This document shows positions 1,684 to 15,913 of a stretch of DNA of 64,000 bases, piece by piece. Location: UHGV virus genome UHGV-0026213, one strand, 5' to 3'. Each line of letters begins with the position of its first letter. Position 1 is the stretch's first letter. The stretch is from a virus. Both the position numbers and the translations under genes were made by a program. The notes below the pieces were generated by a model. The model saw only the letters and a program-made list of their open reading frames with translations, made no database searches and had not been told where the DNA came from.

Positions 1684-4600
1684 CTAAGTACGATCCCCTA
1701 ACTGCTTCCCGTTAAGTTCTCGTTTCAGTACAGCCAAAATCCACTTCCACGCTTTACTCGTGATGTGGTACGGATTGCGTTTCTCCATTAAGAACTGACT
1801 TTCGCCGCTACGGAGTTCGAAGCTCTGCGCATTGAGTTGGTCTTGGCGAACACCGTTCTCGTCAGTGACATCTAACGAACAGGTAAAGTTAAGCTCGTAG
1901 CCTTCAGGATTATTACCCGGTGGTTCTAAGACAATATAAATATCCTGCCCTACACGTAGATCCTTTGGCGTAAGGGTAACTGCTTTACCTGTGTCGGCGC
2001 TGGTCGAAAGCGCAAACGGCACGCTATCAATAGCTGATACATACGCGTCCTTCCCAGCATCGCCGATAATCACCTTACCCGGCCAGTTACACTTCACCGT
2101 TCCTGTCACTTTTGCAATACGGTACTGCTGTTTATCAGTACCTTGTGCAAAGCGTAAAATGAGTTTATGCCGATACCGGTTTGCGGCAGCTTTGGATGTA
2201 CTCCACTCATTGTTCCAGGAGGTATGAAGTTCACCTTTCTTGGCCATCAAAGCACCACGAGACAGCTTACGTGGGAAGAATTGTGCCGGAAGTTGCCCAT
2301 CGTGGGAGATCGCTACACTCCCTTGTCCGGTTGGAAGTGCTATTGTTTCCGTAGGGCAATAATTTAACTCACTCACGTATGATGTAGGATCGATCAATTT
2401 CTGATAGTAATCACCGTCCTTACTGTCCGCTAACCAACCAACGGAAGAGTCCGTATACGATTCAAACAGTGAACGTAAATAGTGATACTTATCGATATCG
2501 ATGTTACCCGTTTTTGGATCGATCAGAGCATGGTTAATAGTGAGGAAACACTTCTCACTCAAACCATTAAACGCCAAACCCACACCGTCACCAGTAAAAT
2601 AGTCTACCAGGTCAAATGGAAGCGTCATTTCTATTTGTCGCAAGTTGATAGTCGTTGAACCAAACTGCGAAAAAGATAGCGCTAAACGAAGTACACGAGT
2701 ATTAACATTATAACGATAACGTATCATCCCACGCGGCGCGTGGTTCGCGGAGATCTTATCACCGTTTGCGCCCCACCCAATTAAATCGAGTATTTCAGCG
2801 TTTGTTACTTCACCGTTAAACAAAACGTCTTTAGTCGTGATTTCAACTGACGTTTCCCTTCCGGCATCCATTAACATCGAACCGTTATTCAACTCGAAGC
2901 TCTTGTGCCAAACTTCTGAAGTCGAGCCAGCACCTACACCCACCTTACAAGTTTTACTAGTAAGGTTAATACGCACATAACGGCGTCCCACTGTACCGCC
3001 CTGCGAGCTTGCACACAAAATAAGATCAGGTGCCGCAGACAGTGCCTTGGTCCCTGCAATGTCATCAACATCGAAAACGAATGAGCCTTCGAACGTTGGT
3101 GCGTTATTTTCCTTCGGGTTAAATGGTGTAAACCAACAATAAGGCATCGCGCCCTCGGTTGAGAAAATCAACTCTAAGTCAGATTTAACATTTAATCCGT
3201 GGGAATAAGAAAAAAGACCGCGACTTAAGGTACAAAGCGTACCACCACTTCCAGCACCTAACAATTTTCGATATATTAAGGCACGGGGTTCTGGGATAGC
3301 ACGGTTTAATAACGGCAACCGTGGGTTATCCGTTAACGTCCAATCTACAGAACTGAGTCCGTGTGCCTTACGAGTGCTAATGTGCTCACTAACCTCGGCA
3401 CTTTTCCCGAAATCAAATGTGGTTTCAAAACTCACGGTTTTATTCGAGTAGGATTCACCACCTGCAACAATATCAACGTAACCGATATAACCGCGCTCAG
3501 GATCGACTGCAATACTCTGAATTGGCTCAGTACGCGAATACAGAGAGCCTGTGAGCATGTTAACGTACAGATAATGACGAATCCCTACGTGTGTTGTAAC
3601 AAACTCTTGGAGAAGCTCTACGTGCGTTTCAGGCCCACTGAAATAAACGGGGTAGTCACCGTCGTAAATTTCGAATTGCACCGCTGCGGATTTAGCCGTG
3701 TCGCTACACTCAGCTTTAACCGCTACGGTGTAGTTTTCAACGTCCGCTGATGTTTCGTACACTGCAACGAGCGGAGACTGGCCTGTGGCTGCCTGGATAC
3801 CGTTAATGTAAACTGTAACCGGGCCACCCCCTGCGGCATAAACCCAAAGCTTCGGCTGGCGTGCCCTTACCCGCGTTTTTGCCAACACAGTAACAACTGA
3901 CTGGTCGCCCATCTGTGAGGCGGTTTTACCTACCGGAACAGATTGGAAACCCATTAGTGGTGGTTCTTCAATACCTGTCCAGTTAATGCCCTTACCAGCG
4001 CTCACTTTCCCCGTAGGCCAGGTCGTCTCAATTTGGTTGTTCGGTGAGAACCAGTTAAACATCGGCGTAGTTTGCAGGTCAATCGAACCTGTAACGGCGC
4101 TATCAGCTTTCGCGCCGTTCAGCAAATAGAAATACTTCAAATCTTGGACGGAGATTGCCGTACCCTGACTATTAAAGCGCCAGTCTGCGCCTTTTACCGC
4201 AGCGAAATCCGTTACCGACCCTTCTTTCGCGTTTGCAATCGCCGCAGCAACCACATCTAAACGCGCCGAAAGTTCTTTTAAGACGTTCGGCACCACTGCA
4301 CGGTTTTCAACCAAACCGTTCTGGTTAGTTGCGTAACGACCGATACCGTAAACGGTTTGCGAGGCTTTATAAATGCCTAGTTCCGACCAATCGTGGTGGT
4401 GACCTGCATCCGCTAAACCACTAAGCGCCGTATTTAACTCGGTAGACAACGGCTTGTCAACGTCTGCGGTGTTATCCGCTTGCCCTAACCCCAGATCAGC
4501 TTTCGTGATTGTCCTGGAGCCGTCATTCATCGGCTTACCGTTAATCATGGTCGTTTTAGCCACATACCCCGATAGGTCAGTTGAGTATGGTGCTAACGAA

Positions 4601-5892
4601 GCCGGTGTTGCAGCAACCCCAGTCGTTTCTGTACCTTTACCTGTTTTAAGTTTAGCGACGCCTTTTTCGGCGGTTGTCGCTTTTGTTGGGTCGATAGTCC
4701 CCACGATAGGGTCGGCGCGAGAACCTTTACCGGTAAAGCTAATCCCATTACGACCTTCAATGTACACCTTCGAGTCATCAGGGTCGCCACCGCCACCAGA
4801 ACCCGCATCTGGATCTTGTTGGTATTCCATCAACGCCGTGGTAGTCAGTAACGGGTTACCGTTCAGGGTGAGTTTGTTCATCCCTAAAGCATCGCCTGTT
4901 GACTCGATGCGTAATGTGTTTTTACCGGCACGCCAGTTGATATAACGTCCTGCACCCGTACCTTCCAGATGCCCTACCGCTAATACCACAGAACCGTTGG
5001 ATTTTAACGTAAAACCATCGTTGGCAAAAATGATTTCGGACTCACCGTTTTTCGAACGGAACTGTGCGCGGTTTCCTGACACCGTACAGTTAAACACGCC
5101 CCGCACTTCCGAAGAAATCCAGTGAGAGATATACGTATCGATAACCGACTGCGGTAAACGAAACGCTTTCAGCTCATCCGTCAGTGCTTTCAACTTTAAC
5201 CCGTACGCCATAAAGGTGTCGGGTGTTTTCAAGTTAACAGGATGCGCGTTAATCTGCGCGGATGTGGTTTCGTGCGGGTTCTTCGCTGCGATATGTGCTG
5301 GGTAATTAAATGCTTCGATTTCTTTACCCAACGCAGTCACTAACGCTTTAACTTCAGCTAATTTGTCTTTAATTAGCTGGTTAGCGTCGTCGGTTTTCAA
5401 TTCAATATCGTGAACTGCCGACGCTAAATATTTTTTGTTCAGCAAATCCGCCCAGGACGTTGCTGCTGGCGTCGCTGGATATAACGATGGTCTACCGTCT
5501 AATAACAGCCAGTCAGCACTGACTGGGTTATTCAAATATTTCACCAGTTCATCGAGAATATCAACAAACGGGTCGTAGAACGTACCGCCGAGCATTTGTC
5601 CTTCAAAGGTTACGATACCCTTGATGGATGGGTTGATAAGGTGTACCCCACAATACACGTTGGCTGCTACCGAGTCATCCAGTTCCGTCAGCTGATATTG
5701 CAGTTCGTAGTCCACCCCACGACTCAGTGGGGTGGTTGAACCTGGTTGTCTGACGACCAAATCTTCAAAGAACGGGCGGTGGTCTAAAATCACCACCCGA
5801 TCGTTGTTGTTCTCTGACCCGATGATACGCTCCTCTAAGAAGTGATTCTCGGCTTTCGTCCCCCGAGGATCGTAAGGATACGCTTTCATCAA
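1684..5892 (-). CDS. Large tail fibre protein (1402 aa)
   Basis: Contains the fibre-type repeat ITKADLGLGQADNTADVDKPLSTEL, a Gly-rich linker (GGGGDPDD) and an HHH motif; adjacent to another giant fibre gene. Confidence 0.6.
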   Translation of the reverse strand: MMKAYPYDPRGTKAENHFLEERIIGSENNNDRVVILDHRPFFEDLVVRQPGSTTPLSRGVDYELQYQLTELDDSVAANVYCGVHLINPSIKGIVTFEGQMLGGTFYDPFVDILDELVKYLNNPVSADWLLLDGRPSLYPATPAATSWADLLNKKYLASAVHDIELKTDDANQLIKDKLAEVKALVTALGKEIEAFNYPAHIAAKNPHETTSAQINAHPVNLKTPDTFMAYGLKLKALTDELKAFRLPQSVIDTYISHWISSEVRGVFNCTVSGNRAQFRSKNGESEIIFANDGFTLKSNGSVVLAVGHLEGTGAGRYINWRAGKNTLRIESTGDALGMNKLTLNGNPLLTTTALMEYQQDPDAGSGGGGDPDDSKVYIEGRNGISFTGKGSRADPIVGTIDPTKATTAEKGVAKLKTGKGTETTGVAATPASLAPYSTDLSGYVAKTTMINGKPMNDGSRTITKADLGLGQADNTADVDKPLSTELNTALSGLADAGHHHDWSELGIYKASQTVYGIGRYATNQNGLVENRAVVPNVLKELSARLDVVAAAIANAKEGSVTDFAAVKGADWRFNSQGTAISVQDLKYFYLLNGAKADSAVTGSIDLQTTPMFNWFSPNNQIETTWPTGKVSAGKGINWTGIEEPPLMGFQSVPVGKTASQMGDQSVVTVLAKTRVRARQPKLWVYAAGGGPVTVYINGIQAATGQSPLVAVYETSADVENYTVAVKAECSDTAKSAAVQFEIYDGDYPVYFSGPETHVELLQEFVTTHVGIRHYLYVNMLTGSLYSRTEPIQSIAVDPERGYIGYVDIVAGGESYSNKTVSFETTFDFGKSAEVSEHISTRKAHGLSSVDWTLTDNPRLPLLNRAIPEPRALIYRKLLGAGSGGTLCTLSRGLFSYSHGLNVKSDLELIFSTEGAMPYCWFTPFNPKENNAPTFEGSFVFDVDDIAGTKALSAAPDLILCASSQGGTVGRRYVRINLTSKTCKVGVGAGSTSEVWHKSFELNNGSMLMDAGRETSVEITTKDVLFNGEVTNAEILDLIGWGANGDKISANHAPRGMIRYRYNVNTRVLRLALSFSQFGSTTINLRQIEMTLPFDLVDYFTGDGVGLAFNGLSEKCFLTINHALIDPKTGNIDIDKYHYLRSLFESYTDSSVGWLADSKDGDYYQKLIDPTSYVSELNYCPTETIALPTGQGSVAISHDGQLPAQFFPRKLSRGALMAKKGELHTSWNNEWSTSKAAANRYRHKLILRFAQGTDKQQYRIAKVTGTVKCNWPGKVIIGDAGKDAYVSAIDSVPFALSTSADTGKAVTLTPKDLRVGQDIYIVLEPPGNNPEGYELNFTCSLDVTDENGVRQDQLNAQSFELRSGESQFLMEKRNPYHITSKAWKWILAVLKRELNGKQLGDRT

Positions 5893-5902
5893 AAAATTCT
5901 CC

Positions 5903-8900
5903 TTAATCGCGAATGATTACCGCCTGCACTTTATTGTTGGTGTCGATAAACGACATTACGCGCTCCTTGTTAAGATAAGGAGGTATCGGTAACGCAGCGT
6001 AATCCACCAGGTTGTTATTAAATTCAGTTGCCACTAACGCATTAAGCGTTTCGGGGTCTGAACTGACACCGGTCAATTCCATAACGCGCACACGATTTAA
6101 TGAGGAATAGTTGCTAATATAGTCTAACAACGTACCATAGACTTTATTCGCGGTTGCGCTATCTGCCGTAGAACGGATGTTGGCACGAACTTCATCCTCA
6201 TAAAGTCCCCCTAAACCGTAGTAAATAGGGGTATACGGATCGTTAACGATAGGTTCGATATTGAACCCTGTTAAACGGTCGGTTAATGGGATTTTCTGCG
6301 TAGTTCCCCCTGCCGCCGTACAACTTACATATTTGTCCGTCGCAGATAAATGCACCGCGACAGTATACGTAGTCCCCGCTAAGGTCAGTCTTGCACTAAA
6401 CGTTATTGCGTTGGTTGCACTACGGTTGTGGGTAAACGATACTTCAGGTTGTAATGAACTCCACGGTGCTGGCGTGACACGTTTCGTTGGTGTGAAACCC
6501 ACCACTACCGATTTCCCGCTACCGAAGTTCAAACCGAACCCTGCGTAACAATATTCACCGTTACTGTCGGTTAAACGATACCCGCGAGTGATAAGTAACG
6601 ACAACCGCATAAACTCGCCGTCGGTGTTTTTCCAACAACCTAAAACAGTTTCTAACACCGTGCCGGTTTTTGCGTTGCTTTCTGTTTCCCAACTGACTCG
6701 CATTCCTGCGTTCTTAAAAGCTGGGAACATGTTGTGGATAAACCCGTGTAGGTTATCGCTTACCCCTTTCGCGTCAAAAATCCACTTGGATGCGAGCTGG
6801 TCGTATTTCACCCCGTCTAAAGCTTTATACTGCCCACCGGCAACATAACGCCAATCTGCTTCACCGCGTACTACTGCCTGGAGTCCAGAAGCCCAGCAAG
6901 GCGCACCTACTGTTAAGTTAGCTAACCCAAGCGCTGCACGTGACGCGGAGCGCTGAATGTGTGCGTTGTCATCGGCTTTATGATCTTTCAGTTCACGGAA
7001 ATCGCCCAACCGTGTGACATTACGCATCTCCGTAACGAACACCTCAGAAATGTCGTTAACACCAATCAACCCTACACGCGTCATGGTATCCGTTTCAGCC
7101 TGACTGTAGCTGTCGTGGACAATATACTTCGCTTTGTTGTCAACAATATCAACAAAAATCCCTGCGTAGATTTCTGTATTCAATTTCGGAAAACGTTCAC
7201 TGACGTTAATCGTCATCAACGGAACGTCGTATGTTTCACCACCGATAAAATACGTTGAAGCTGGAAGCGTGACCAGAATTTTGTCTTTGACCGTAAGGTC
7301 TATTAAGTCGTTACCAGACTCACCAAAACGTATAATGTCAAGACGTGCCTCCGAGTCAACACCGCTGACAGCGCGCTCCAATTTTTCAATCTGGGATGTC
7401 TGCGCCATTACCACACTCCCATCGAGTGCTAAAGTCACATCATCCACATCCAGACCAAATTTAATCAGACCACGTTGCGCTGTGGTTGCGTTCCCTGTAC
7501 CAAAAGCGGTAAACGGGTGTTGGTGAACTTTAGGCGAGTATTTATCTAACTCCGCACGCTGTGCTGTAGAAATCGGTAAATCGGCATCGGGCGTATTCGC
7601 AACATTACCTAAACCAAAGGTAATCTTATCGATAGTAACCGAGCTGGTAAGTTGCATGTCGTTAATGTACGATTTAACTGCAACTAACTTACCGGTGAAC
7701 TCCGCATCGAGTTTTTCAATCAGTGCTGGCGTTGCTGCAAGGTTTTCAGCGGTACCGAACTCATCGGTCAACTGCCAAGCTGCCAGAGCTGTTGTATCGG
7801 TCGCGGTAGGAAGAATAAAGGTCGCTACGAACGGCGAGGCTTTTATCCCGCTACCGGTGATCGTAACCGTTGTTGTCGAACTTGCGTAGAATAAACCTGT
7901 GCCACCTGCGGTATTGCCTGGCAGATACGGGGCTACGGTGGTGGGGTCTAAGAGTTTTTTACCACGCCACAACAATCCTCGGTCATCGGGGTATAGCACA
8001 AGCTGGTTAGTACCTGCTTGGAACGTTACGGGGTTGTTACCCACGTTAACATCAGTTGAACCTTGGCCAATAAACTTGATGGATTTCGGATCAACAACAA
8101 ACTGGGCACCTAAACGTGTCTCGTCAACAACATCCGGTGCTTTCTTAATGGTAACCGTGTTACCTTTGTTTTGCGAACTAATGGTAACGGCGTCGGCAAC
8201 ATTATTGATCAGCGATTTAAAGTGGTGCTGATTCTCTAATGCTTCTAACGCAGCGTCCATGTTATCGAAGTTAATCCGACCGCTATACGTTTTACCGTTT
8301 ACGGTAATAACGACGTCAAACACGTTCCCTGTACGCTTCAGTTGAAAACGTAGCGTAAAATCCCCATCCGGTATTGCCGGATTAGGAGCTTGAGAAATAT
8401 AACGTACCGACGGTAACGGACTCCCGTAACCGTTCAATGTCAGACTGATAGTAAGGGTACCACCCCAGATTTGACCAGTAATCTCTACGAACTTACCGGA
8501 GTTACTACCCGGGTTTTCGTAGAAACGTAAACCAACCCTACCGACCGCTTCATTACCAGACGCTGTTTTACGTCCAGTAACAATAAAGTCAATATCTTGC
8601 AGGTTGGCAGGCACTGCATTAAAGTTAGCAATGAAACCGCTTTTCGCTCCTGTATAACGAAGCGCGCCGTGATATCTGTGACCACTACTAACATAGCTTT
8701 CGCTAAAATAAGGACTCACGTATTTCGACATCGAGACCGGATCAACTTCCGTCGTGAACGAAGTAAAACCCGGAAGTGTGGTAATCGTGCCGTTAACGTT
8801 CTTGCTCGGCGATTCACGAAGCAGTTTTTTCTGTGCGGTTAACGTTGCTTGTGTTGGGTACTTAGCATTAACATAATCCGTTAACTGCTGTTTCGTCTTC

Positions 8901-10225
8901 CCGTAAGCTAACGCGGCATCTGTCGCAATACCATTCAGCTCTAACGCACGGATCGGACCCCACGTATCGGTGTGCGGGTTGTCCTTACGTGTAACGTGTT
9001 CGTGTGCAGGCGCGTTACGATACAGCTGCTCAACTAACTGATGGTATTTGACTATTAACTGGTAAACATCGTTATCGATGTCAGGTTCTGGTGCGCCGGG
9101 TAAAGAACGAATTTGAATATAATCGTTTTCGGCCGCATACCAGTTTAAATTAATGTTCGTTTTAAACTTCAACCATTTAGCAACATCCGTTTTCGAATAC
9201 CCTGCCGAGAACTCATCAGGCGGCGTATCGACATTGAATGTGTAATCCATGGTCTGTTTATTTGTTTTTACTACGATGACGTAAACACCGTTTCCGGGTT
9301 GACGGGTTACACTAAAATCGATATCGTTTTTTAACTCATCGTCAGTTAAACCGTTGATTAACGTATAATCGTAGTTTGTTGAACCGCTACCAATAGCGAC
9401 CGTTAAGACCAGTGAGATTTTGCGCTGTTTTAGCTGCAGCCGTAGAATACTTGCACCGCCGTTAGCATAACAGAGCATCCAATCGATCTGTTCGTTTGGA
9501 TTCAATTTCGTCATGTCTGGCAGAATAGCAGGAATTATGTGTTTCACTGACAGGGCGTAGTCGTTAAAGGTTGCAGTTTTATAACTCAAGCTATAACGAT
9601 GACGGGCAGTGTTGTAGGTGAAGCCACCTTTATTGTCGTATACGGCATACTGCTCGGAAGTGATAACCTTGCTATTAGCACGGTATTCTAAATCCAGGGT
9701 ATTGCGTGCGATGGGGTTAAGCCGACTCACGACTTCCCCTAACGAATCGCCTAATCCAGCAATAGCCTGCATTAATTCCAGTTCACCTTTCCAATTCTCC
9801 CAATCGAACTGAATATCGACCGGCGGAAAGTAAACGTCCCCGATGACGGTGTCCCACTGACACGCAGACGGGTATTTATCTTTATTGAGTTCGCGTTCTG
9901 CGCTAATCTGTTGTTGGGTAGCCTGACCACAACCAACGGCGTGGTAATCTACCGTAAAATTCGATTTGTATTTGTCATTAACAATCCAAATCATCCCGTG
10001 AATGAGATAGGCTGTGCGCAACATACCGGTCTCGTACGGGTGTGTAATAACGTAATCGTCGCCTAAGGTCAGTGTTTTGCCGCCGCTCTTGACCACCAGG
10101 GATGTGGTGAAAAAAGGGGCGTGGGCAGGTACCAACATTCGGTATTTCGTACCAATGACGGCGACCGCTTCACCGGTTATTTTATTCCCCGGTTTTTTGA
10201 AGTGTGGGTCTAAGACGACAGCCAT
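5903..10225 (-). CDS. Large tail fibre protein (1440 aa)
   Basis: Contains the repeat KITFGLGNVANTPDADLPISTAQRAEL, matching the motif in the neighbouring fibre; 10-nt gap to the downstream gene suggests co-transcription. Confidence 0.6.
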   Translation of the reverse strand: MAVVLDPHFKKPGNKITGEAVAVIGTKYRMLVPAHAPFFTTSLVVKSGGKTLTLGDDYVITHPYETGMLRTAYLIHGMIWIVNDKYKSNFTVDYHAVGCGQATQQQISAERELNKDKYPSACQWDTVIGDVYFPPVDIQFDWENWKGELELMQAIAGLGDSLGEVVSRLNPIARNTLDLEYRANSKVITSEQYAVYDNKGGFTYNTARHRYSLSYKTATFNDYALSVKHIIPAILPDMTKLNPNEQIDWMLCYANGGASILRLQLKQRKISLVLTVAIGSGSTNYDYTLINGLTDDELKNDIDFSVTRQPGNGVYVIVVKTNKQTMDYTFNVDTPPDEFSAGYSKTDVAKWLKFKTNINLNWYAAENDYIQIRSLPGAPEPDIDNDVYQLIVKYHQLVEQLYRNAPAHEHVTRKDNPHTDTWGPIRALELNGIATDAALAYGKTKQQLTDYVNAKYPTQATLTAQKKLLRESPSKNVNGTITTLPGFTSFTTEVDPVSMSKYVSPYFSESYVSSGHRYHGALRYTGAKSGFIANFNAVPANLQDIDFIVTGRKTASGNEAVGRVGLRFYENPGSNSGKFVEITGQIWGGTLTISLTLNGYGSPLPSVRYISQAPNPAIPDGDFTLRFQLKRTGNVFDVVITVNGKTYSGRINFDNMDAALEALENQHHFKSLINNVADAVTISSQNKGNTVTIKKAPDVVDETRLGAQFVVDPKSIKFIGQGSTDVNVGNNPVTFQAGTNQLVLYPDDRGLLWRGKKLLDPTTVAPYLPGNTAGGTGLFYASSTTTVTITGSGIKASPFVATFILPTATDTTALAAWQLTDEFGTAENLAATPALIEKLDAEFTGKLVAVKSYINDMQLTSSVTIDKITFGLGNVANTPDADLPISTAQRAELDKYSPKVHQHPFTAFGTGNATTAQRGLIKFGLDVDDVTLALDGSVVMAQTSQIEKLERAVSGVDSEARLDIIRFGESGNDLIDLTVKDKILVTLPASTYFIGGETYDVPLMTINVSERFPKLNTEIYAGIFVDIVDNKAKYIVHDSYSQAETDTMTRVGLIGVNDISEVFVTEMRNVTRLGDFRELKDHKADDNAHIQRSASRAALGLANLTVGAPCWASGLQAVVRGEADWRYVAGGQYKALDGVKYDQLASKWIFDAKGVSDNLHGFIHNMFPAFKNAGMRVSWETESNAKTGTVLETVLGCWKNTDGEFMRLSLLITRGYRLTDSNGEYCYAGFGLNFGSGKSVVVGFTPTKRVTPAPWSSLQPEVSFTHNRSATNAITFSARLTLAGTTYTVAVHLSATDKYVSCTAAGGTTQKIPLTDRLTGFNIEPIVNDPYTPIYYGLGGLYEDEVRANIRSTADSATANKVYGTLLDYISNYSSLNRVRVMELTGVSSDPETLNALVATEFNNNLVDYAALPIPPYLNKERVMSFIDTNNKVQAVIIRD

Positions 10226-10293
10226 TCTCTACTCCTATAGTCCGTGGGCGTCGAAGTTCATACTATGACTTGAATCTATAGAGGAAAAGAGCT

Positions 10294-11556
10294 GTGACTA
10301 CTGCTTATCAAGTGCGGCCCGACAGCGCTTTTGGCTTCTCTCGAGAGTCCCGTACCTGGGGAGCCATCGATGTCACGCAACCCTTAAATACGTTGTGTTC
10401 AGACTACCACACCTTTGAGATCGGTTTAAGTGCACTTGGTAAAGACTATACGTTAGTCAGCCAATACCATCTTGCCGAGCTACAAAACCGAACAGACACT
10501 TTACAAGATTGGTTAAATGAAAAGGCCGGAAACGTCATCCCCACTCTAAAGGCCGGATTGCCGAAACTCGAATTCAGTTGGGCGCATTACCAATCGATTA
10601 ATGCTGACGTGCCCGTTGAAACGTACCTGTGTCCGCCGGGGTACCACCACAGTCAAGATTTCAGCTTAGACGATGCTGACGACGTTGTCATCGTTTGTGA
10701 GGACAAGTGGAAGGACAAATACCGTAATAGCGTTCTGTACAACATTAACGGTCAGTGGGTACCGCATCAGACGGATACCGTAGGTGTCCGATTACCCGGG
10801 GCCGGTAAAATTGTACGAAGGGCCTGTACGCCAGATATCGGCTGTATGGTTTTTGGTCAGTTAGGGAATGTTAAAACTTACCCCATCGCCAACCTTACCC
10901 TAAACAAGCTCGACACTACACGTGACTATTACTCCACGTTAATGATTTCACTGCCCGAATCTATTACGGGGAAAACGGTGGGTTTCGTCATCGGTGGTCT
11001 GTTACGTTGGTTGCCCCCAGGCGGTTATTTCTCCGACCGTGCGATCATGATTTCTTTACCGAATTTTGATCTTGCGCGGACCGTTCTGGAAACCCGTCGC
11101 TATTACGACTGGGACGCCATCGGTGTAGGGGATTTATCAACGCCTACTAATGTCCAACGTATTCGCAACCCCGAAACATTAAAGGCACTTTTACTCCACG
11201 AGTCTTCGTTTATCTTTACGGTAGATAACCCGTATTTAGAAGAAGAGGTTGTGGGTGTATCGCATAACGCAGTTTGGGGACGTTGTTATCTCAAGGACCC
11301 TAGCGATCCTGATTCTGAAAAACCATTAGGGTACTTAAATAATCGTTTCGGAAAGACGGTGGGCTATTGGCCTACATGGGAGGAGGGTGAGTGGGTATTT
11401 AACACCACGGAGTTCGACAGTCAAAACTACGTCTTTCGTGAAGCCCGGTGGTATAATCAGAAGAAGATTAACGACGCGCAAGCAATCGTCGGTCCATTCG
11501 GTCCCTGGGAAAAAGTGTATTTAGAAATGCATCGCTTTAGAGCACGAAAAAAATAA
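10294..11556 (+). CDS. Hypothetical protein (420 aa), rightward gene inside the leftward fibre cluster
   Basis: Long ORF with GTG start, followed by a hairpin plus T-run terminator; no recognisable motif. Confidence 0.5.
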   Translation: MTTAYQVRPDSAFGFSRESRTWGAIDVTQPLNTLCSDYHTFEIGLSALGKDYTLVSQYHLAELQNRTDTLQDWLNEKAGNVIPTLKAGLPKLEFSWAHYQSINADVPVETYLCPPGYHHSQDFSLDDADDVVIVCEDKWKDKYRNSVLYNINGQWVPHQTDTVGVRLPGAGKIVRRACTPDIGCMVFGQLGNVKTYPIANLTLNKLDTTRDYYSTLMISLPESITGKTVGFVIGGLLRWLPPGGYFSDRAIMISLPNFDLARTVLETRRYYDWDAIGVGDLSTPTNVQRIRNPETLKALLLHESSFIFTVDNPYLEEEVVGVSHNAVWGRCYLKDPSDPDSEKPLGYLNNRFGKTVGYWPTWEEGEWVFNTTEFDSQNYVFREARWYNQKKINDAQAIVGPFGPWEKVYLEMHRFRARKK

Positions 11557-11559
11557 AGT

Positions 11560-11606
11560 AACCTCCTACCCTCTAAGAGGGTAGGAGTAGCACGTTTTTT
11601 TTTTCG
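11560..11606. terminator. Bidirectional intrinsic terminator between convergent genes
   Basis: Inverted repeat CCTACCCTC..GAGGGTAGG followed by a T10 run, between a plus-strand stop and a minus-strand stop. Confidence 0.6.
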
Positions 11607-11607
11607 C

Positions 11608-11817
11608 TTAGTCTTTTTTGTAGACAATTGCGTTACCGTGCAGTTTGTTGTTGCCGGAAATACCGATAACTTTGAATGCGTCGCCGCCAATTTTTTCAGC
11701 TTCAGCAGCCAGCTTACCCGTTACATGATCAACGGTGTCGCCGAAAGCGCTAACGTTACCGATTTTCTTAAACTCTTCTGGAATATGCTCAGCAGAAGAG
11801 AACTCTTTAATAGACAT
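11608..11817 (-). CDS. DUF1471 (YdgH/BhsA/McbA-like) domain protein without signal peptide
   Basis: C-terminus VIGISGNNKLHGNAIVYKKD and upstream GDTVDHVTGKLAAEAEKIGGDAF match the enterobacterial DUF1471 signature. Likely start is the internal ATG (MSIKEF, GGAGAG SD); the ORF-track start at 11835 is TTG. Confidence 0.55.
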   Translation of the reverse strand: MSIKEFSSAEHIPEEFKKIGNVSAFGDTVDHVTGKLAAEAEKIGGDAFKVIGISGNNKLHGNAIVYKKD

Positions 11818-12023
11818 AACAGCTCTCCATTTCAAAAGGAAGGTGGTCTAAGACCGACGTGTGTTACAACCGAAGCATAAGATAGCTCCTCCCCGTAGGG
11901 AGGAGTAGAGTGCGCGAAAAAAGTGGCCTGCTTAACTAAACGATGGGTTTAAGAAAAGTGTTGATAAAAAGCTTTACCAACGTCAGGTCACAATATATAA
12001 ACACAACGTAAGAAAAAGGGGAA

Positions 12024-12989
12024 TTATTGCGGAGGTGATGTCGGACCATGTTTACCTTGGTGAATGTGAACGCTAAAGGTAATACCGGAAATAATGGCAT
12101 CTTTAACCGTAAAGACACCCACACCTTCACCCGTACCACCGTATTTGAAGTTCTTAGCAACTTCCAAATTACCGGTGAACATCGCTTCCTTCCCTTCTTG
12201 TTTAAAGTTCGGCGTTTTAAACGTTGTCGAACTGCCCGCTTCTGTTAACCAGGTTTGTGTTTTAAACGTAACGGAACTCGCTGCTTCCGTATTGCGGACT
12301 TCGCATTTTTCATTAATCGTTTTCGTTTCCAGGTTAATAGAACGCTTTGAATAAATGAACGCATCTTCTTTGTTGATGTTCACTTTTGAAAGCATCGCAT
12401 TCTCAAACCCGAGATCATCTTCAACCGAGTTAATGTAATACTTGTTTCCTTTATGGTCAACGCACTGCCACGTACCGTTTGCATTATCAAACTGAAACAA
12501 CCACGCCGCTTTCTCGCCATTCACCATACTCGTTCTTAGCGTGATATGTTTGTCAATCGTCGAAACGTTCAACACATACGCATTGGACAAGTCATCCGCC
12601 ATTTGGTTTTCAGGGTCAGCCGACCACGCATAAACCGCATCTTCTAATCGCTTAACGTTAGCGAAGTTCAGATCAATCCAAAAATAAATATCGGTTTTCC
12701 CCAAACGTAACAAGATAACGTAATCTTCTCGTTTAACGTCAGGGGAATTAATTCGGTTGGAGTTAAACTTCCACCACTTTGCTGTTATCGTGTTACCCGT
12801 CTTAATGGTTAGGTTATCTGTTGCACCAGATGTTTCGTGCGTCTTTTCAGTTGCTGAAGAAACAGATTGCACCACGGTAGGGTTAGCAAAGTTGGTTTCA
12901 ATTGGTATCACTTTTACCCGATCTGTACCACGGGGTTTGTCTTCCGCGACGATACCAATTGAGAAAAAATCAACACTGGATTTCTCCAT
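12024..12989 (-). CDS. Putative tail or baseplate protein (321 aa)
   Basis: Long minus-strand ORF heading the leftward cluster; beta-rich Ser/Thr/Asn composition and C-terminal VHIHQGKHG His motif. Function is inferred from context only. Confidence 0.4.
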   Translation of the reverse strand: MEKSSVDFFSIGIVAEDKPRGTDRVKVIPIETNFANPTVVQSVSSATEKTHETSGATDNLTIKTGNTITAKWWKFNSNRINSPDVKREDYVILLRLGKTDIYFWIDLNFANVKRLEDAVYAWSADPENQMADDLSNAYVLNVSTIDKHITLRTSMVNGEKAAWLFQFDNANGTWQCVDHKGNKYYINSVEDDLGFENAMLSKVNINKEDAFIYSKRSINLETKTINEKCEVRNTEAASSVTFKTQTWLTEAGSSTTFKTPNFKQEGKEAMFTGNLEVAKNFKYGGTGEGVGVFTVKDAIISGITFSVHIHQGKHGPTSPPQ

Positions 12990-13410: not shown

Positions 13411-14148
13411 ATGAGAGAATTATTAGACGATATCTTTACCAACACCAGTTTAGAACTTTCTTCTACGGTGGTTAACGAACTAATAGGGCAAACCCAACCT
13501 GCTAAGTTAATCGATGTTGGAACAATTAAACCTGAAGATTATCCAGACAGTGACGTTATCGACTGTATGATTGACGAATACGTGATAGGAAGTTACGCCA
13601 ACCGCGTCTTCTTTGTTATTAATACCGAAACCAGTGTCATGTTAATCTATAAGTTGATCAGTGATGCCGAACTTGAAGTTGTGGCTGACCACATTCGTCT
13701 TCTTGCGAACACACCTACTAGTATCGCTGATGTGCTTATTGGGAACGGTTGGGCTTTACCACCACTATTCTCTTACTTCCCTCTGTTTAGAAATGGGATA
13801 GGGTTACTCCGAAATGCAGAAAATCTTCCCGATAACGTCGAGTTATCACTGCTTGGACCCGGCATCGATCTTTGTCCATTAGAAGACGAGGGCACGCTAT
13901 ATGGTTTGCGCATCTATGTTTCTGTGTTAAACGGATACCGCGTTATTGAACTAATTGCATCCGACTTAGCAAAACAGATCCCAGATGTGGAAACGATTTC
14001 TAAAGCCACCCACCTGGTTGAGATTAACTCAGATGATCCCTTATTGAAATATCACGAGAAAATTGATCTTCGTAAAATCGCCACGATGAGAGGGTGGGGT
14101 TGTGCTGAGATTACGAAGGACTATCTGCTGTTAATTAAAACCGCGTAA
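13411..14148 (+). CDS. Hypothetical protein, member A of a tandem paralog array
   Basis: C-terminus MRGWGCAEITKDYLLLIKTA weakly resembles the GW..QLLF tail of the next three genes. Confidence 0.5.
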   Translation: MRELLDDIFTNTSLELSSTVVNELIGQTQPAKLIDVGTIKPEDYPDSDVIDCMIDEYVIGSYANRVFFVINTETSVMLIYKLISDAELEVVADHIRLLANTPTSIADVLIGNGWALPPLFSYFPLFRNGIGLLRNAENLPDNVELSLLGPGIDLCPLEDEGTLYGLRIYVSVLNGYRVIELIASDLAKQIPDVETISKATHLVEINSDDPLLKYHEKIDLRKIATMRGWGCAEITKDYLLLIKTA

Positions 14149-14177: not shown

Positions 14178-14732
14178 ATGTTTCAAACTGAACTGAAAAA
14201 TGAAATTATCCAAACCCTTGAAAAGGGCGTAGGCGAACATTTCTTTGTCCGTCCTTATACCGTACTGACCAATACCATTATTCAGCCTGGTGCGATGATA
14301 GTAGGGGTAAGTGTACAAGCTGTAGAGGAAACCCCGCTGCGTCGTAACATCACACGTAAAACCCATATCCCATTTAAAACAGGTTTTACAGATTACCTTC
14401 AGAGCTTACTGGGGGATAGCGCTTGGAAAACAGGCAGCTTCTTCCACGAAGGGAAGACTTCCACGCTGGTTTATAAAGAGAGCACCAAGTATCTGGTTGA
14501 TTTTCTCTTAGCGCGTCAGTATACTTTCTTTCCAACCCCTACTGACTGCACCCCAGACAACCCAGGTAAGTTATTAAACCAAAGCGAAGCCGAGGCACTC
14601 TTTACAAGACTTCGGAATGAACAGTGCGATGTTGACGACTGGGAAACGTTGATCGCGGTCGCTAAAGCCCACGGTTGGTATACCGTACGTAAAATCGGCC
14701 AGCAGCTGTTGTTCTTAGCTTACCCTGCTTAA
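14178..14732 (+). CDS. Hypothetical protein, paralog family member B
   Basis: SD AAGGAG upstream; C-terminal HGWYTVRKIGQQLLFLAYPA. Confidence 0.6.
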   Translation: MFQTELKNEIIQTLEKGVGEHFFVRPYTVLTNTIIQPGAMIVGVSVQAVEETPLRRNITRKTHIPFKTGFTDYLQSLLGDSAWKTGSFFHEGKTSTLVYKESTKYLVDFLLARQYTFFPTPTDCTPDNPGKLLNQSEAEALFTRLRNEQCDVDDWETLIAVAKAHGWYTVRKIGQQLLFLAYPA

Positions 14733-14761: not shown

Positions 14762-15913
14762 ATGCGAAATATTATTTCTAAACCAGGACATGCCAAGATC
14801 CTAAAAGAACTGATGGACAGATGCTATAATCGGACTTGGTCACTACCAAGCTTAACCATCGAATCTTCATTACAACGTGAGTTGTTTGGTTATAACTTGG
14901 GCTGCTGTGTACTTACTGAATACAATGAGATTATCGCACCTGTCGATGTCTGTACTTACGATGAAGAAATTGAAGGTTACAAGTTCGCGGTTTACACAAA
15001 TTGTGGACTAAATTACCGTAAACTCGTTGTTAGGGAAAAGAGTAGCAACCGGAAGATTATGTTTAAGGTCTTCCCAAGTGGTAAAGTCAGTAATTTATGT
15101 CTTCAGCTTGAGAAAGTGCCCTTTCACGGTGCAGCCATTTTAACTAAACCAGAACTCCTGTTATTAAGCGGGTTAATTGGCTTTGAAGTAAAAACCATCA
15201 AAGTTGAGCAGGAACTTACACGAAACGATTTCGGCTCAACTTGGTACGAAAGTTTCTTCCGCTACGAAATGTTAAGTGATAAAGCTATCAAACTCACTTA
15301 CCGTTCTACCGACGATATCGTTTACCACATTTTAATTAGCGGCGAACCCCACCAGATTATTGAAGACGAAGGAGAAAAATCAGTGTGCACCTTAAAAGAT
15401 GAATTAACTGATTTTGTTAACAAAATTGATAACGTGGGTATCAGTGAATTATTGTTCCCGATACAGCATCCAGAGTTGCTTGACGAGAAATCTGAAAACG
15501 TGGTTATGGGTGTGCATTTACTTCCTGACCATCTTGCTATCTACCGTACACTTTCTAAAAATCAACTTAAAGTGTGGTGCCTGTTAAAAGACCTTTTAAC
15601 AGAGGCGGGGTGGTCGTGTAGTGTAGATGTTAACTGTGAAGGAGTTGCGTTCTTCATCACAATAGGCAATCGTAGTTTTTCTGTCGATTTACCTACTCGC
15701 AGCTATTACAATTTCTTCCCGACCGCAGAAGGACGTACTGAAAAAGAACCCGCATTACTGCTCAGTGCTGAGGAGTCCAATGCGTTAATGACGAAACTAA
15801 AAGCGAAAGACGAGAAGCTGGATGCTTTACATCTACCTATAATCGGGAAAGACTACGGTTGGGCTGACGTGCAAAAATACGGCAGCCAACTGTTGTTTGT
15901 TGCCAACATTTAA
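14762..15913 (+). CDS. Hypothetical protein, paralog family member C
   Basis: SD AAAGGAG upstream; C-terminal YGWADVQKYGSQLLFVANI. Confidence 0.6.
   Translation: MRNIISKPGHAKILKELMDRCYNRTWSLPSLTIESSLQRELFGYNLGCCVLTEYNEIIAPVDVCTYDEEIEGYKFAVYTNCGLNYRKLVVREKSSNRKIMFKVFPSGKVSNLCLQLEKVPFHGAAILTKPELLLLSGLIGFEVKTIKVEQELTRNDFGSTWYESFFRYEMLSDKAIKLTYRSTDDIVYHILISGEPHQIIEDEGEKSVCTLKDELTDFVNKIDNVGISELLFPIQHPELLDEKSENVVMGVHLLPDHLAIYRTLSKNQLKVWCLLKDLLTEAGWSCSVDVNCEGVAFFITIGNRSFSVDLPTRSYYNFFPTAEGRTEKEPALLLSAEESNALMTKLKAKDEKLDALHLPIIGKDYGWADVQKYGSQLLFVANI

Follow-up and report, generated by a model that had tools for sequence, protein, structure and literature searches.

A leaderless DUF1471-domain protein encoded in the baseplate/fibre gene block of an SPN3US-like jumbo phage

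A small gene for a DUF1471 domain without export signal

The 64,000-nucleotide stretch of the virus genome UHGV-0026213 analyzed here (hereafter designated the window) belongs to a jumbo phage near SPN3US, phiEaH2, and Asesino; even in its best-conserved genes, the nucleotide sequence is only about 74% identical to the nearest cultured relatives. On its minus strand, at positions 11608..11817, we found a gene for a protein of 69 residues (MSIKEF...VYKKD, followed by a stop codon) that carries a DUF1471 domain without a leader and is the orthologue of SPN3US gp172, a member of phrog_8068. The original prediction had placed the open reading frame (ORF) at 11608-11835, where it reads from a TTG codon on the minus strand as 75 residues; the ORF is real, but this start lies 18 nt too far upstream. 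Because the orthologues all begin at the internal Met (MSIKE...) and a GGAGA sequence is found 7 nt before it, the coding sequence is assigned to 11608..11817, and the true start, as judged from these sequence features, is the ATG at 11817 and not the TTG at 11835. The GGAGA forms the Shine-Dalgarno box (11824..11828, minus strand) and takes the form TGGAGA or TGAGGA in relatives, among which the ribosome-binding site is kept; the in-frame extension up to the TTG (11818..11835, minus strand) contains this site and is outside the protein. The single-domain product has a mass of 7.4 kDa, an isoelectric point (pI) of 6.3, and no cysteines.

The profile search suggested along with the original prediction gave a significant match to the Pfam family PF07338 (YdgH_BhsA-like), with 38.2 bits (E=1.4e-9; gathering cutoff, 27 bits) over profile positions 2-55 of 55. 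Residues 55-67, GNNKLHGNAIVYK, fit the family motif G-N-N-K-L-H-G-x-A-x-x-Y-K, and G55, N57, G61, A63, and Y66 are invariant in the alignment of the window protein with its orthologues. Among the NCBIfam families, BhsA was the nearest (46.8 bits), followed by YbiJ, YahO, McbA, and YhcN, all matches being far under the equivalog cutoffs and limited to the mature part of those proteins; a phmmer search against PDB sequences matched Salmonella YahO (2ma4, 2noc). Moreover, an AlphaFold2 model made with an eight-sequence alignment (mean predicted local distance difference test score, 89.4) showed the topology strand-strand-helix-strand-strand. Its best PDB matches among DUF1471 domains were YdgH-C (4evu), STM1478-N (2m2j), SrfN (2ma8/2jna), and YahO (2noc), with template modeling (TM) scores of 0.72–0.78, and its highest TM-score (0.85; root-mean-square deviation, 1.9) was obtained with RcsF (2y1b), already reported as the closest structural neighbour of DUF1471 structures (PMC4092069). 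Collectively, the score over threshold, the signature, and the DUF1471/RcsF-like predicted fold bear out the predicted family membership, and the protein is a bona fide DUF1471 domain, well beyond chance. No second copy of the domain was found within the 64-kb window.

Most cellular DUF1471 members carry an N-terminal Sec signal peptide and are periplasmic (PMC4092069). The N-terminus of the window protein, MSIKEFSSAEHIPEEFKK, is hydrophilic, and no Sec signal peptide was detected by a Kyte-Doolittle hydropathy scan, which was used instead of SignalP and took the maximum of the 10-residue mean over the first 35 residues. This maximum was 0.15 for P0001, a protein 99% identical to the window protein and scored in its stead, and was at most 1.4 in leaderless phage-type sequences, as compared with at least 2.0 in typical full-length bacterial homologues. 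The alignment to bacterial family members opens at about their signal-peptidase site; likewise, in the pairwise alignment with a BhsA-like representative (31% identity), phage residue 1 falls approximately at that site. In all eight related phage genomes, only a few residues of the orthologue precede the first domain strand, so that each of the nine phage loci inspected (the window and its eight relatives) is leaderless, and the missing signal claimed for the window is a common property of every phage orthologue inspected.

When 1.84 billion cluster representatives were searched exhaustively with an HMMER profile, in place of a word-indexed homology search that had given only 7 close hits, 91 hits were returned at E<=0.001. 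The top four are full-length leaderless phage-type proteins of 68–78 residues; typical full-length bacterial hits have 80–90 residues, match from about residue 30, and possess a hydrophobic N-terminus, and the remaining few hits that seem leaderless have the look of gene calls cut short or given a wrong start. As read from these alignments, what the phage gene directly encodes is the mature form of a periplasmic protein. A separate observation concerns a leaderless, 77%-identical copy (P0005) that lies on a contig of 23 kb and bears the name 'TPA: DUF1471 domain-containing protein [Salmonella enterica]'; it is probably a jumbo-phage sequence within a bacterial assembly rather than a chromosomal gene.

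Conserved position, selection, and putative transcription signals

The gene is preceded on the same strand by a gp173-like gene (12024..12989, minus; 321 residues), assigned to phrog_3216, 'baseplate assembly protein', and is followed by a convergent gp171-like gene (10294..11556, plus; 420 residues, phrog_3337), whose SPN3US counterpart is essential and tail-associated (PMC5105663). Farther on are the genes of two giant virion proteins, one gp170-like (5903..10225, minus; 1440 residues, phrog_7557) and the other gp169-like (1684..5892, minus; 1402 residues, phrog_8078). The former falls in SPN3US paralogue family C, a group similar to phiKZ gp131 for which a baseplate or fibre role is presumed (PMC5694885). 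The DUF1471 gene is therefore upstream of giant fibre-like genes with the convergent gp171-like gene in between, and its description as lying between a putative tail protein and the giant fibre genes is roughly accurate, the surroundings being a baseplate/fibre gene block.

The same slot, with the gp173 homologue, the DUF1471 gene, and the convergent gp171 homologue in this order, was found in all eight genomes inspected (Seoulvirus, Erskinevirus, Wellingtonvirus, and Derbicusvirus), as the original prediction had proposed to check in related phages; the exception in detail is Wellington, which has a second DUF1471 gene between the first copy and the gp171 homologue. This second gene (WELLINGTON_189; positions 4287-4847 of the Wellington locus, 186 residues), directly downstream of the first and also leaderless, encodes a PF07338 domain (29.7 bits) at the N-terminus and, behind it, an acidic low-complexity tail of about 120 residues, and is a tandem duplication with extension in one genus. 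Goslar, in which a terminator and then a convergent gene come directly after the gp171 homologue and no small ORF intervenes, was considered as an outgroup with an empty site and rejected, since that neighbouring gene has no BLASTP similarity to gp173 and belongs to phrog_1037, not phrog_3216.

By tblastn, the small protein was found in 60 phage records, all of them SPN3US-like jumbo phages of 197–251 kb with Salmonella, Erwinia, Escherichia (E. coli), Cronobacter, or Proteus as hosts, and it matched phrog_8068 with E=4.5e-32 over positions 1-69 of the 70-position profile. The gp171 family, by comparison, occurs in 140 records of phiKZ-like phages, whose hosts include Pseudomonas, Klebsiella, Vibrio, and Xanthomonas; therefore, the DUF1471 gene is an addition of the SPN3US-like clade. 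The exact 69-residue protein was present in 876 blocks of a public assembly collection, including metagenomic contigs of 222–228 kb (for example, in several ENA metagenome assemblies and in NCBI GCA_948296085.1), and the phage of the window appears to be a common, widespread, uncultivated jumbo phage of about 225 kb.

The DUF1471 family is described as exclusive to Enterobacteriaceae (PMC4092069), and on this account it is more economical to assume that the gene passed from host to phage. The same restriction, together with the 60 of 60 phage records whose hosts are Enterobacterales, makes an enterobacterial host likely also for the phage of the window, as had been hinted from the sequence. 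The GC content of the DUF1471 gene and that at third codon positions (GC3) do not stand out from the phage background, suggesting that the gene was acquired long ago. Apart from this, two sharply different protein types were observed in Seoulvirus: SPAsTU is near Asesino (Erskinevirus) and the window (pN 0.07 between SPAsTU and Asesino), and SPN3US and SNUABM_29 share a divergent DUF1471 type, about 45% identical to the window protein. The adjacent gp171 shows 76–79% identity to that of the window in SPN3US, SPAsTU, Asesino, and SNUABM_29 alike, and the split suggests either that a module was exchanged or that the SPN3US sub-lineage diverged at a faster pace.

The ratio of nonsynonymous to synonymous substitution rates (dN/dS) was 0.07–0.12 against SPAsTU and Asesino, the comparison with SPN3US being discarded as saturated. 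These values indicate that the gene is under purifying selection, and a spurious ORF was rejected on the grounds of selection and conservation.

The gene also appears to have transcription signals of its own. In phiKZ, the late promoter of the non-virion RNA polymerase is 5'-TATG-3', with the G as the start, a motif that is necessary but not sufficient (PMC4666361). A TATG motif at 11876..11879 (minus strand) is a putative promoter of this type; with the G at 11876 as the predicted transcription start, the 5' untranslated region (UTR) would be 59 nt long. TATG precedes the start codon in all nine loci, by 57–66 nt in the relatives and 50 nt in Wellington. Within the putative 5' UTR of the window is a small stem-loop, GGTCTTAGACC (11845..11855, minus strand), and a stem of the AGAC-loop-GTCT type occurs at a comparable position in the UTRs of seven of the eight relatives, the SPN3US stem being a compensatory GAAC/GTTC variant and Wellington folding a different stem. 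Upstream of the TATG, a GC-rich, terminator-like hairpin (11886..11905, minus strand) ends the gp173-like transcript, and five of its seven pairs stay paired via compensatory changes in relatives. On the other side, a GC-rich hairpin of 11 bp with an A-run and a T-run at its two ends (11563..11587) is a putative bidirectional terminator common to the DUF1471 gene and the convergent gp171-like gene; an A-run plus hairpin lies downstream in seven of the eight relatives, and in Wellington the second DUF1471 gene comes next. From this arrangement we infer that the DUF1471 gene is probably a late monocistronic unit. An Rfam search at the locus gave nothing meaningful, and RNAalifold on the upstream intergenic region gave the terminator hairpin only.

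Other features of the region were noted in passing. The 3' flank of the gp173-like gene (11906-12023, minus strand, especially 11916-11927 and 11987-11997) contains blocks conserved in Seoulvirus, Erskinevirus, and Wellingtonvirus, namely, TTAC near the stop codon, TA(A/T)TGTGAC, TCG(C/T)TTG, and the almost invariant GCCACTTTTTTC. These blocks had no Rfam match, no consensus fold, and no recurrence elsewhere in the window; GCCACTTTTTTC, TATAWTGTGAC, and TTTAC-N11-16-TAWTG showed no enrichment in the window, hence no repeated promoter motif. They could be a regulatory site, or else a middle promoter of the phiKZ type that gives a short transcript. The gp170-like (minus) and gp171-like (plus) genes diverge from 68 nt of intergenic DNA (10226-10293) that contains a near-palindrome (CATACTATG / CATAGTATG) and thereby has TATG on each strand about 30–40 nt before each start codon, which is consistent with back-to-back late promoters. 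Finally, three consecutive plus-strand ORFs (13411-14148, 14178-14732, and 14762-15913; 245, 184, and 383 residues) share a similar C-terminal motif, GW...K.G.QLLF.A / GWGCAEITKDYLLLIKTA, and this suggests a small tandem paralogue family without useful Pfam or PHROG annotation.

Virion association of the orthologue and the likely role of the protein

The orthologue of the protein has been found in virions. In the study of Ali et al. 2017 (PMC5694885), SPN3US gp172 was identified in CsCl-purified virions with 4 unique peptides and 6 spectra at 81% coverage and an identification probability of 100%, and was described there as 'a protein of unknown function' and, with 7 kDa, as the smallest in the SPN3US virion. 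The virion proteomics proposed earlier as a check has thus a positive answer from the literature, for the orthologue and not for the phage of the window. Expressed as spectral count per kDa (SC/M), gp172 had a value of 0.86, as compared with 0.93 for the portal protein (gp81), present in 12 copies per virion; among the products of the neighbouring genes, gp170, gp171, and gp173 had values of 1.00, 0.74, and 0.23, respectively (PMC5694885). In the same data, gp168–gp173 are all without the 'Head' flag, which denotes detection in a tailless mutant (PMC5694885).

The domain identity, the fold, the lack of a leader, the conserved position, and the purifying selection found here, taken with the published presence of the orthologue in the virion, lead us to favour, by a little over even chances, the explanation that a host domain was captured long ago and now serves, leaderless, as a minor, probably tail- or baseplate-associated virion protein that touches the envelope or bridges the baseplate. 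In this explanation, one capture from an Enterobacterales host would likely have occurred at the base of the SPN3US-like jumbo-phage clade, and vertical inheritance would have followed in one fixed slot of the baseplate/fibre block. Without a Sec signal, the protein would be made in the cytoplasm, where tails assemble, probably by late monocistronic transcription from its own TATG promoter, and about a dozen copies would probably be built into the virion as a minor tail or baseplate component. Its job might then be to touch a component of the envelope as the phage adsorbs or penetrates, or to link subunits of the baseplate; the envelope contact is proposed by analogy, because cellular DUF1471 proteins act at the cell envelope, and one of them, SrfN, binds anionic (sulfated) polysaccharides (PMC4092069). 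Here, the late promoter, the tail location, and the binding function are the parts that we infer. The capture of a host domain, as originally proposed, is accordingly also the best reading here, but it is less novel than was implied, since orthologues are already annotated as DUF1471 or BhsA in GenBank/RefSeq.

Several points weigh against this explanation. In a neighbour-joining tree of the 55-column domain with 200 bootstraps, phage monophyly was recovered in 11 of 200 replicates, and because the tree does not recover a phage clade, it is from the conserved position and the leaderless architecture common to the phage proteins that a single capture is deduced. Taken alone, a promoter motif of 4 nt carries little weight. 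The detection in virions amounts to 6 spectra from one preparation, for an orthologue 45% identical to the window protein; gp172 went undetected in 47(am1) particles, and further work on its status is called for by the authors (PMC5694885). The absent 'Head' flag is a weak pointer to the tail for a 7-kDa protein of low counts, and the phage proteins are acidic (pI 4.8–6.3), unlike the basic polysaccharide-binding face of SrfN. Furthermore, no solved phage structure containing this protein was present among the PDB fold matches, and in the literature searched we found no paper discussing DUF1471/BhsA in jumbo phages or linking gp172 to DUF1471, and no SPN3US baseplate structure. The later SPN3US papers examined do not mention gp172, and the 2016 SPN3US supplement says no more of the gene than that it has homologues in phiEaH2 and CR5.

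An alternative that we regard as unlikely, though deserving serious attention, is that the protein is non-structural and cytoplasmic, acting as an assembly helper for its baseplate/fibre neighbours or as a host-directed factor (e.g., a decoy that engages a partner of the DUF1471 proteins in their unprocessed or mature form), and merely co-purified with the virions. A small, acidic, soluble protein, probably well expressed from its own promoter, would suit such contamination, as would the low number of spectra and the failure to see gp172 in 47(am1) particles; indeed, the same study saw traces of the non-virion proteins gp100, gp122, and gp158 in particles, and the position among tail genes fits an assembly factor. 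However, the SC/M of gp172 is on par with those of genuine low-copy virion proteins (portal, gp170, and gp171), and its identification was made at full probability and high coverage. As to an assembly helper in particular, classical fibre chaperones (T4 gp38/gp57A, lambda Tfa-type), which are usually absent from the virion, are encoded directly after the fibre gene and co-transcribed with it; the present gene is not so placed, and nothing ties the DUF1471 fold to chaperone activity. Thus, of the role originally suggested, fibre accessory or chaperone, the accessory part is plausible, but the chaperone part is unsupported, given the monocistronic look of the gene, its location not directly 3' of a fibre gene, and the orthologue in the finished virion.

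The protein might instead be a periplasmic effector delivered by the virion, i.e., a pre-matured domain carried on the tail tip or baseplate and released as the tail breaches the outer membrane, to mimic or compete with host DUF1471 proteins or RcsF and thereby alter envelope permeability or Rcs signalling. This would account for the loss of the Sec signal together with the retention of the family signature, the protein being the mature form of periplasmic proteins with the family motif kept; the top TM-score match to RcsF and the orthologue in the virion without a head flag also agree with it. Nevertheless, we consider it improbable, as there is no direct evidence of release or of a periplasmic target, RcsF function needs redox-sensitive cysteines that the window protein does not have, and about a dozen copies per virion are little for a stoichiometric decoy. 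Slightly more doubtful still is the full form of this idea, in which the virion would stand in for the Sec pathway and bring the protein straight into the periplasm, and the mimic would blunt envelope-stress signalling or shift outer-membrane permeability in the first minutes of infection.

There is similarly little probability that the protein is a head-internal or ejection protein, packaged in dependence on gp47 and injected into the cytoplasm with the DNA. Such a location is raised by the fact that gp172 is the sole wild-type virion protein absent from particles of the head-protein mutant 47(am1), but the authors suggest a technical cause, the low-mass gel region being perhaps unsampled (PMC5694885); moreover, gp172 is not among the proteins detected in tailless heads, and its gene is in the tail block, not with head or ejection-protein genes. 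Lastly, the reading of the gene as a host-derived remnant in decay or a passenger without function, to which the unknown function and the faster divergence than gp171 (45% vs 76% identity to SPN3US) might point, is effectively refuted by conservation and selection: the gene is intact at the same position in 60 records and at least four genera, has a dN/dS of about 0.1 and a conserved ribosome-binding site, promoter motif, and terminator, and its product has been detected as an orthologue and recurs as the identical 69-residue sequence in the 876 assembly-collection blocks.

As a gene, this belongs to an already catalogued phage family and is not new. What the present analysis adds is the explicit link of the smallest SPN3US virion protein to a leaderless, host-derived DUF1471 domain, and its clade-wide conservation in the baseplate/fibre block of at least four genera; the papers reporting gp172 call it a protein of unknown function with no mention of a domain, and a fold and an origin are now assigned. 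DUF1471 is a highly expanded Enterobacterales family of roughly a dozen paralogous subfamilies with unknown biochemical function (PMC4092069), and the target that the domain contacts on arrival of the phage at a cell may give a clue to what the cellular proteins bind.

Comparison with known systems

The closest known counterpart is SPN3US gp172 (SPN3US_0172 / YP_009153466.1), which is likewise a leaderless DUF1471 protein of 69 residues encoded in the slot between the gp173-like and gp171-like genes. The window protein is 45% identical to gp172, about 80% identical to the proteins of SPAsTU/STsAS, and 71–78% identical to those of the Erwinia phages ChrisDB, pEa_SNUABM_4/8/9, Asesino, Huxley, and Machina; it is of the 'KKIGNV...GISGNNK' type, as in SPAsTU and Asesino, the SPN3US type being divergent. 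For SPN3US, the RefSeq name 'DUF1471 domain-containing protein' is appropriate. In SPAsTU (MH221129), Stratton (KX397373), Kwan (KX397369), and Wellington (MH426724), the protein is labelled 'multiple stress resistance protein BhsA'. Against the BhsA equivalog NF047859, the window protein scored 46.8 bits vs the 90-bit cutoff and aligned to BhsA positions 30-85 only; because the score is under the cutoff and the signal peptide is missing, the label is an over-annotation. It is misleading in these phage records, and in candidate biocontrol phages it should not be taken to denote a gene for host fitness or virulence.

With the bacterial PF07338 proteins (BhsA/YcfR, YbiJ, YahO, McbA, YhcN, SrfN, and YdgH), the phage protein shares the domain, the alpha+beta fold, the C-terminal motif, and the Enterobacterales sphere, and the nearest signal-bearing representative (P0012) is 49% identical over 53 aligned positions. 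In contrast to them, it is phage-encoded, has an orthologue in virions, and is without a Sec signal and so without a normal route to the periplasm, and its acidic character differs from the basic face of SrfN. The likeness to RcsF, the outer-membrane lipoprotein sensor of the Rcs phosphorelay, is one of fold only: the window protein has no lipobox, signal sequence, or cysteines, and at about 12% sequence identity there is no sequence-level relationship. Finally, as a small protein encoded in a tail-fibre/baseplate block, it resembles the fibre chaperones (T4 gp38/gp57A and lambda/Mu Tfa-type). It differs from them in showing no sequence or fold similarity, with no Pfam or PHROG match of the Tfa, gp38, or gp57 type to the window protein, in its own TATG motif and flanking terminator-like hairpins, and in the presence of its orthologue in the mature virion.

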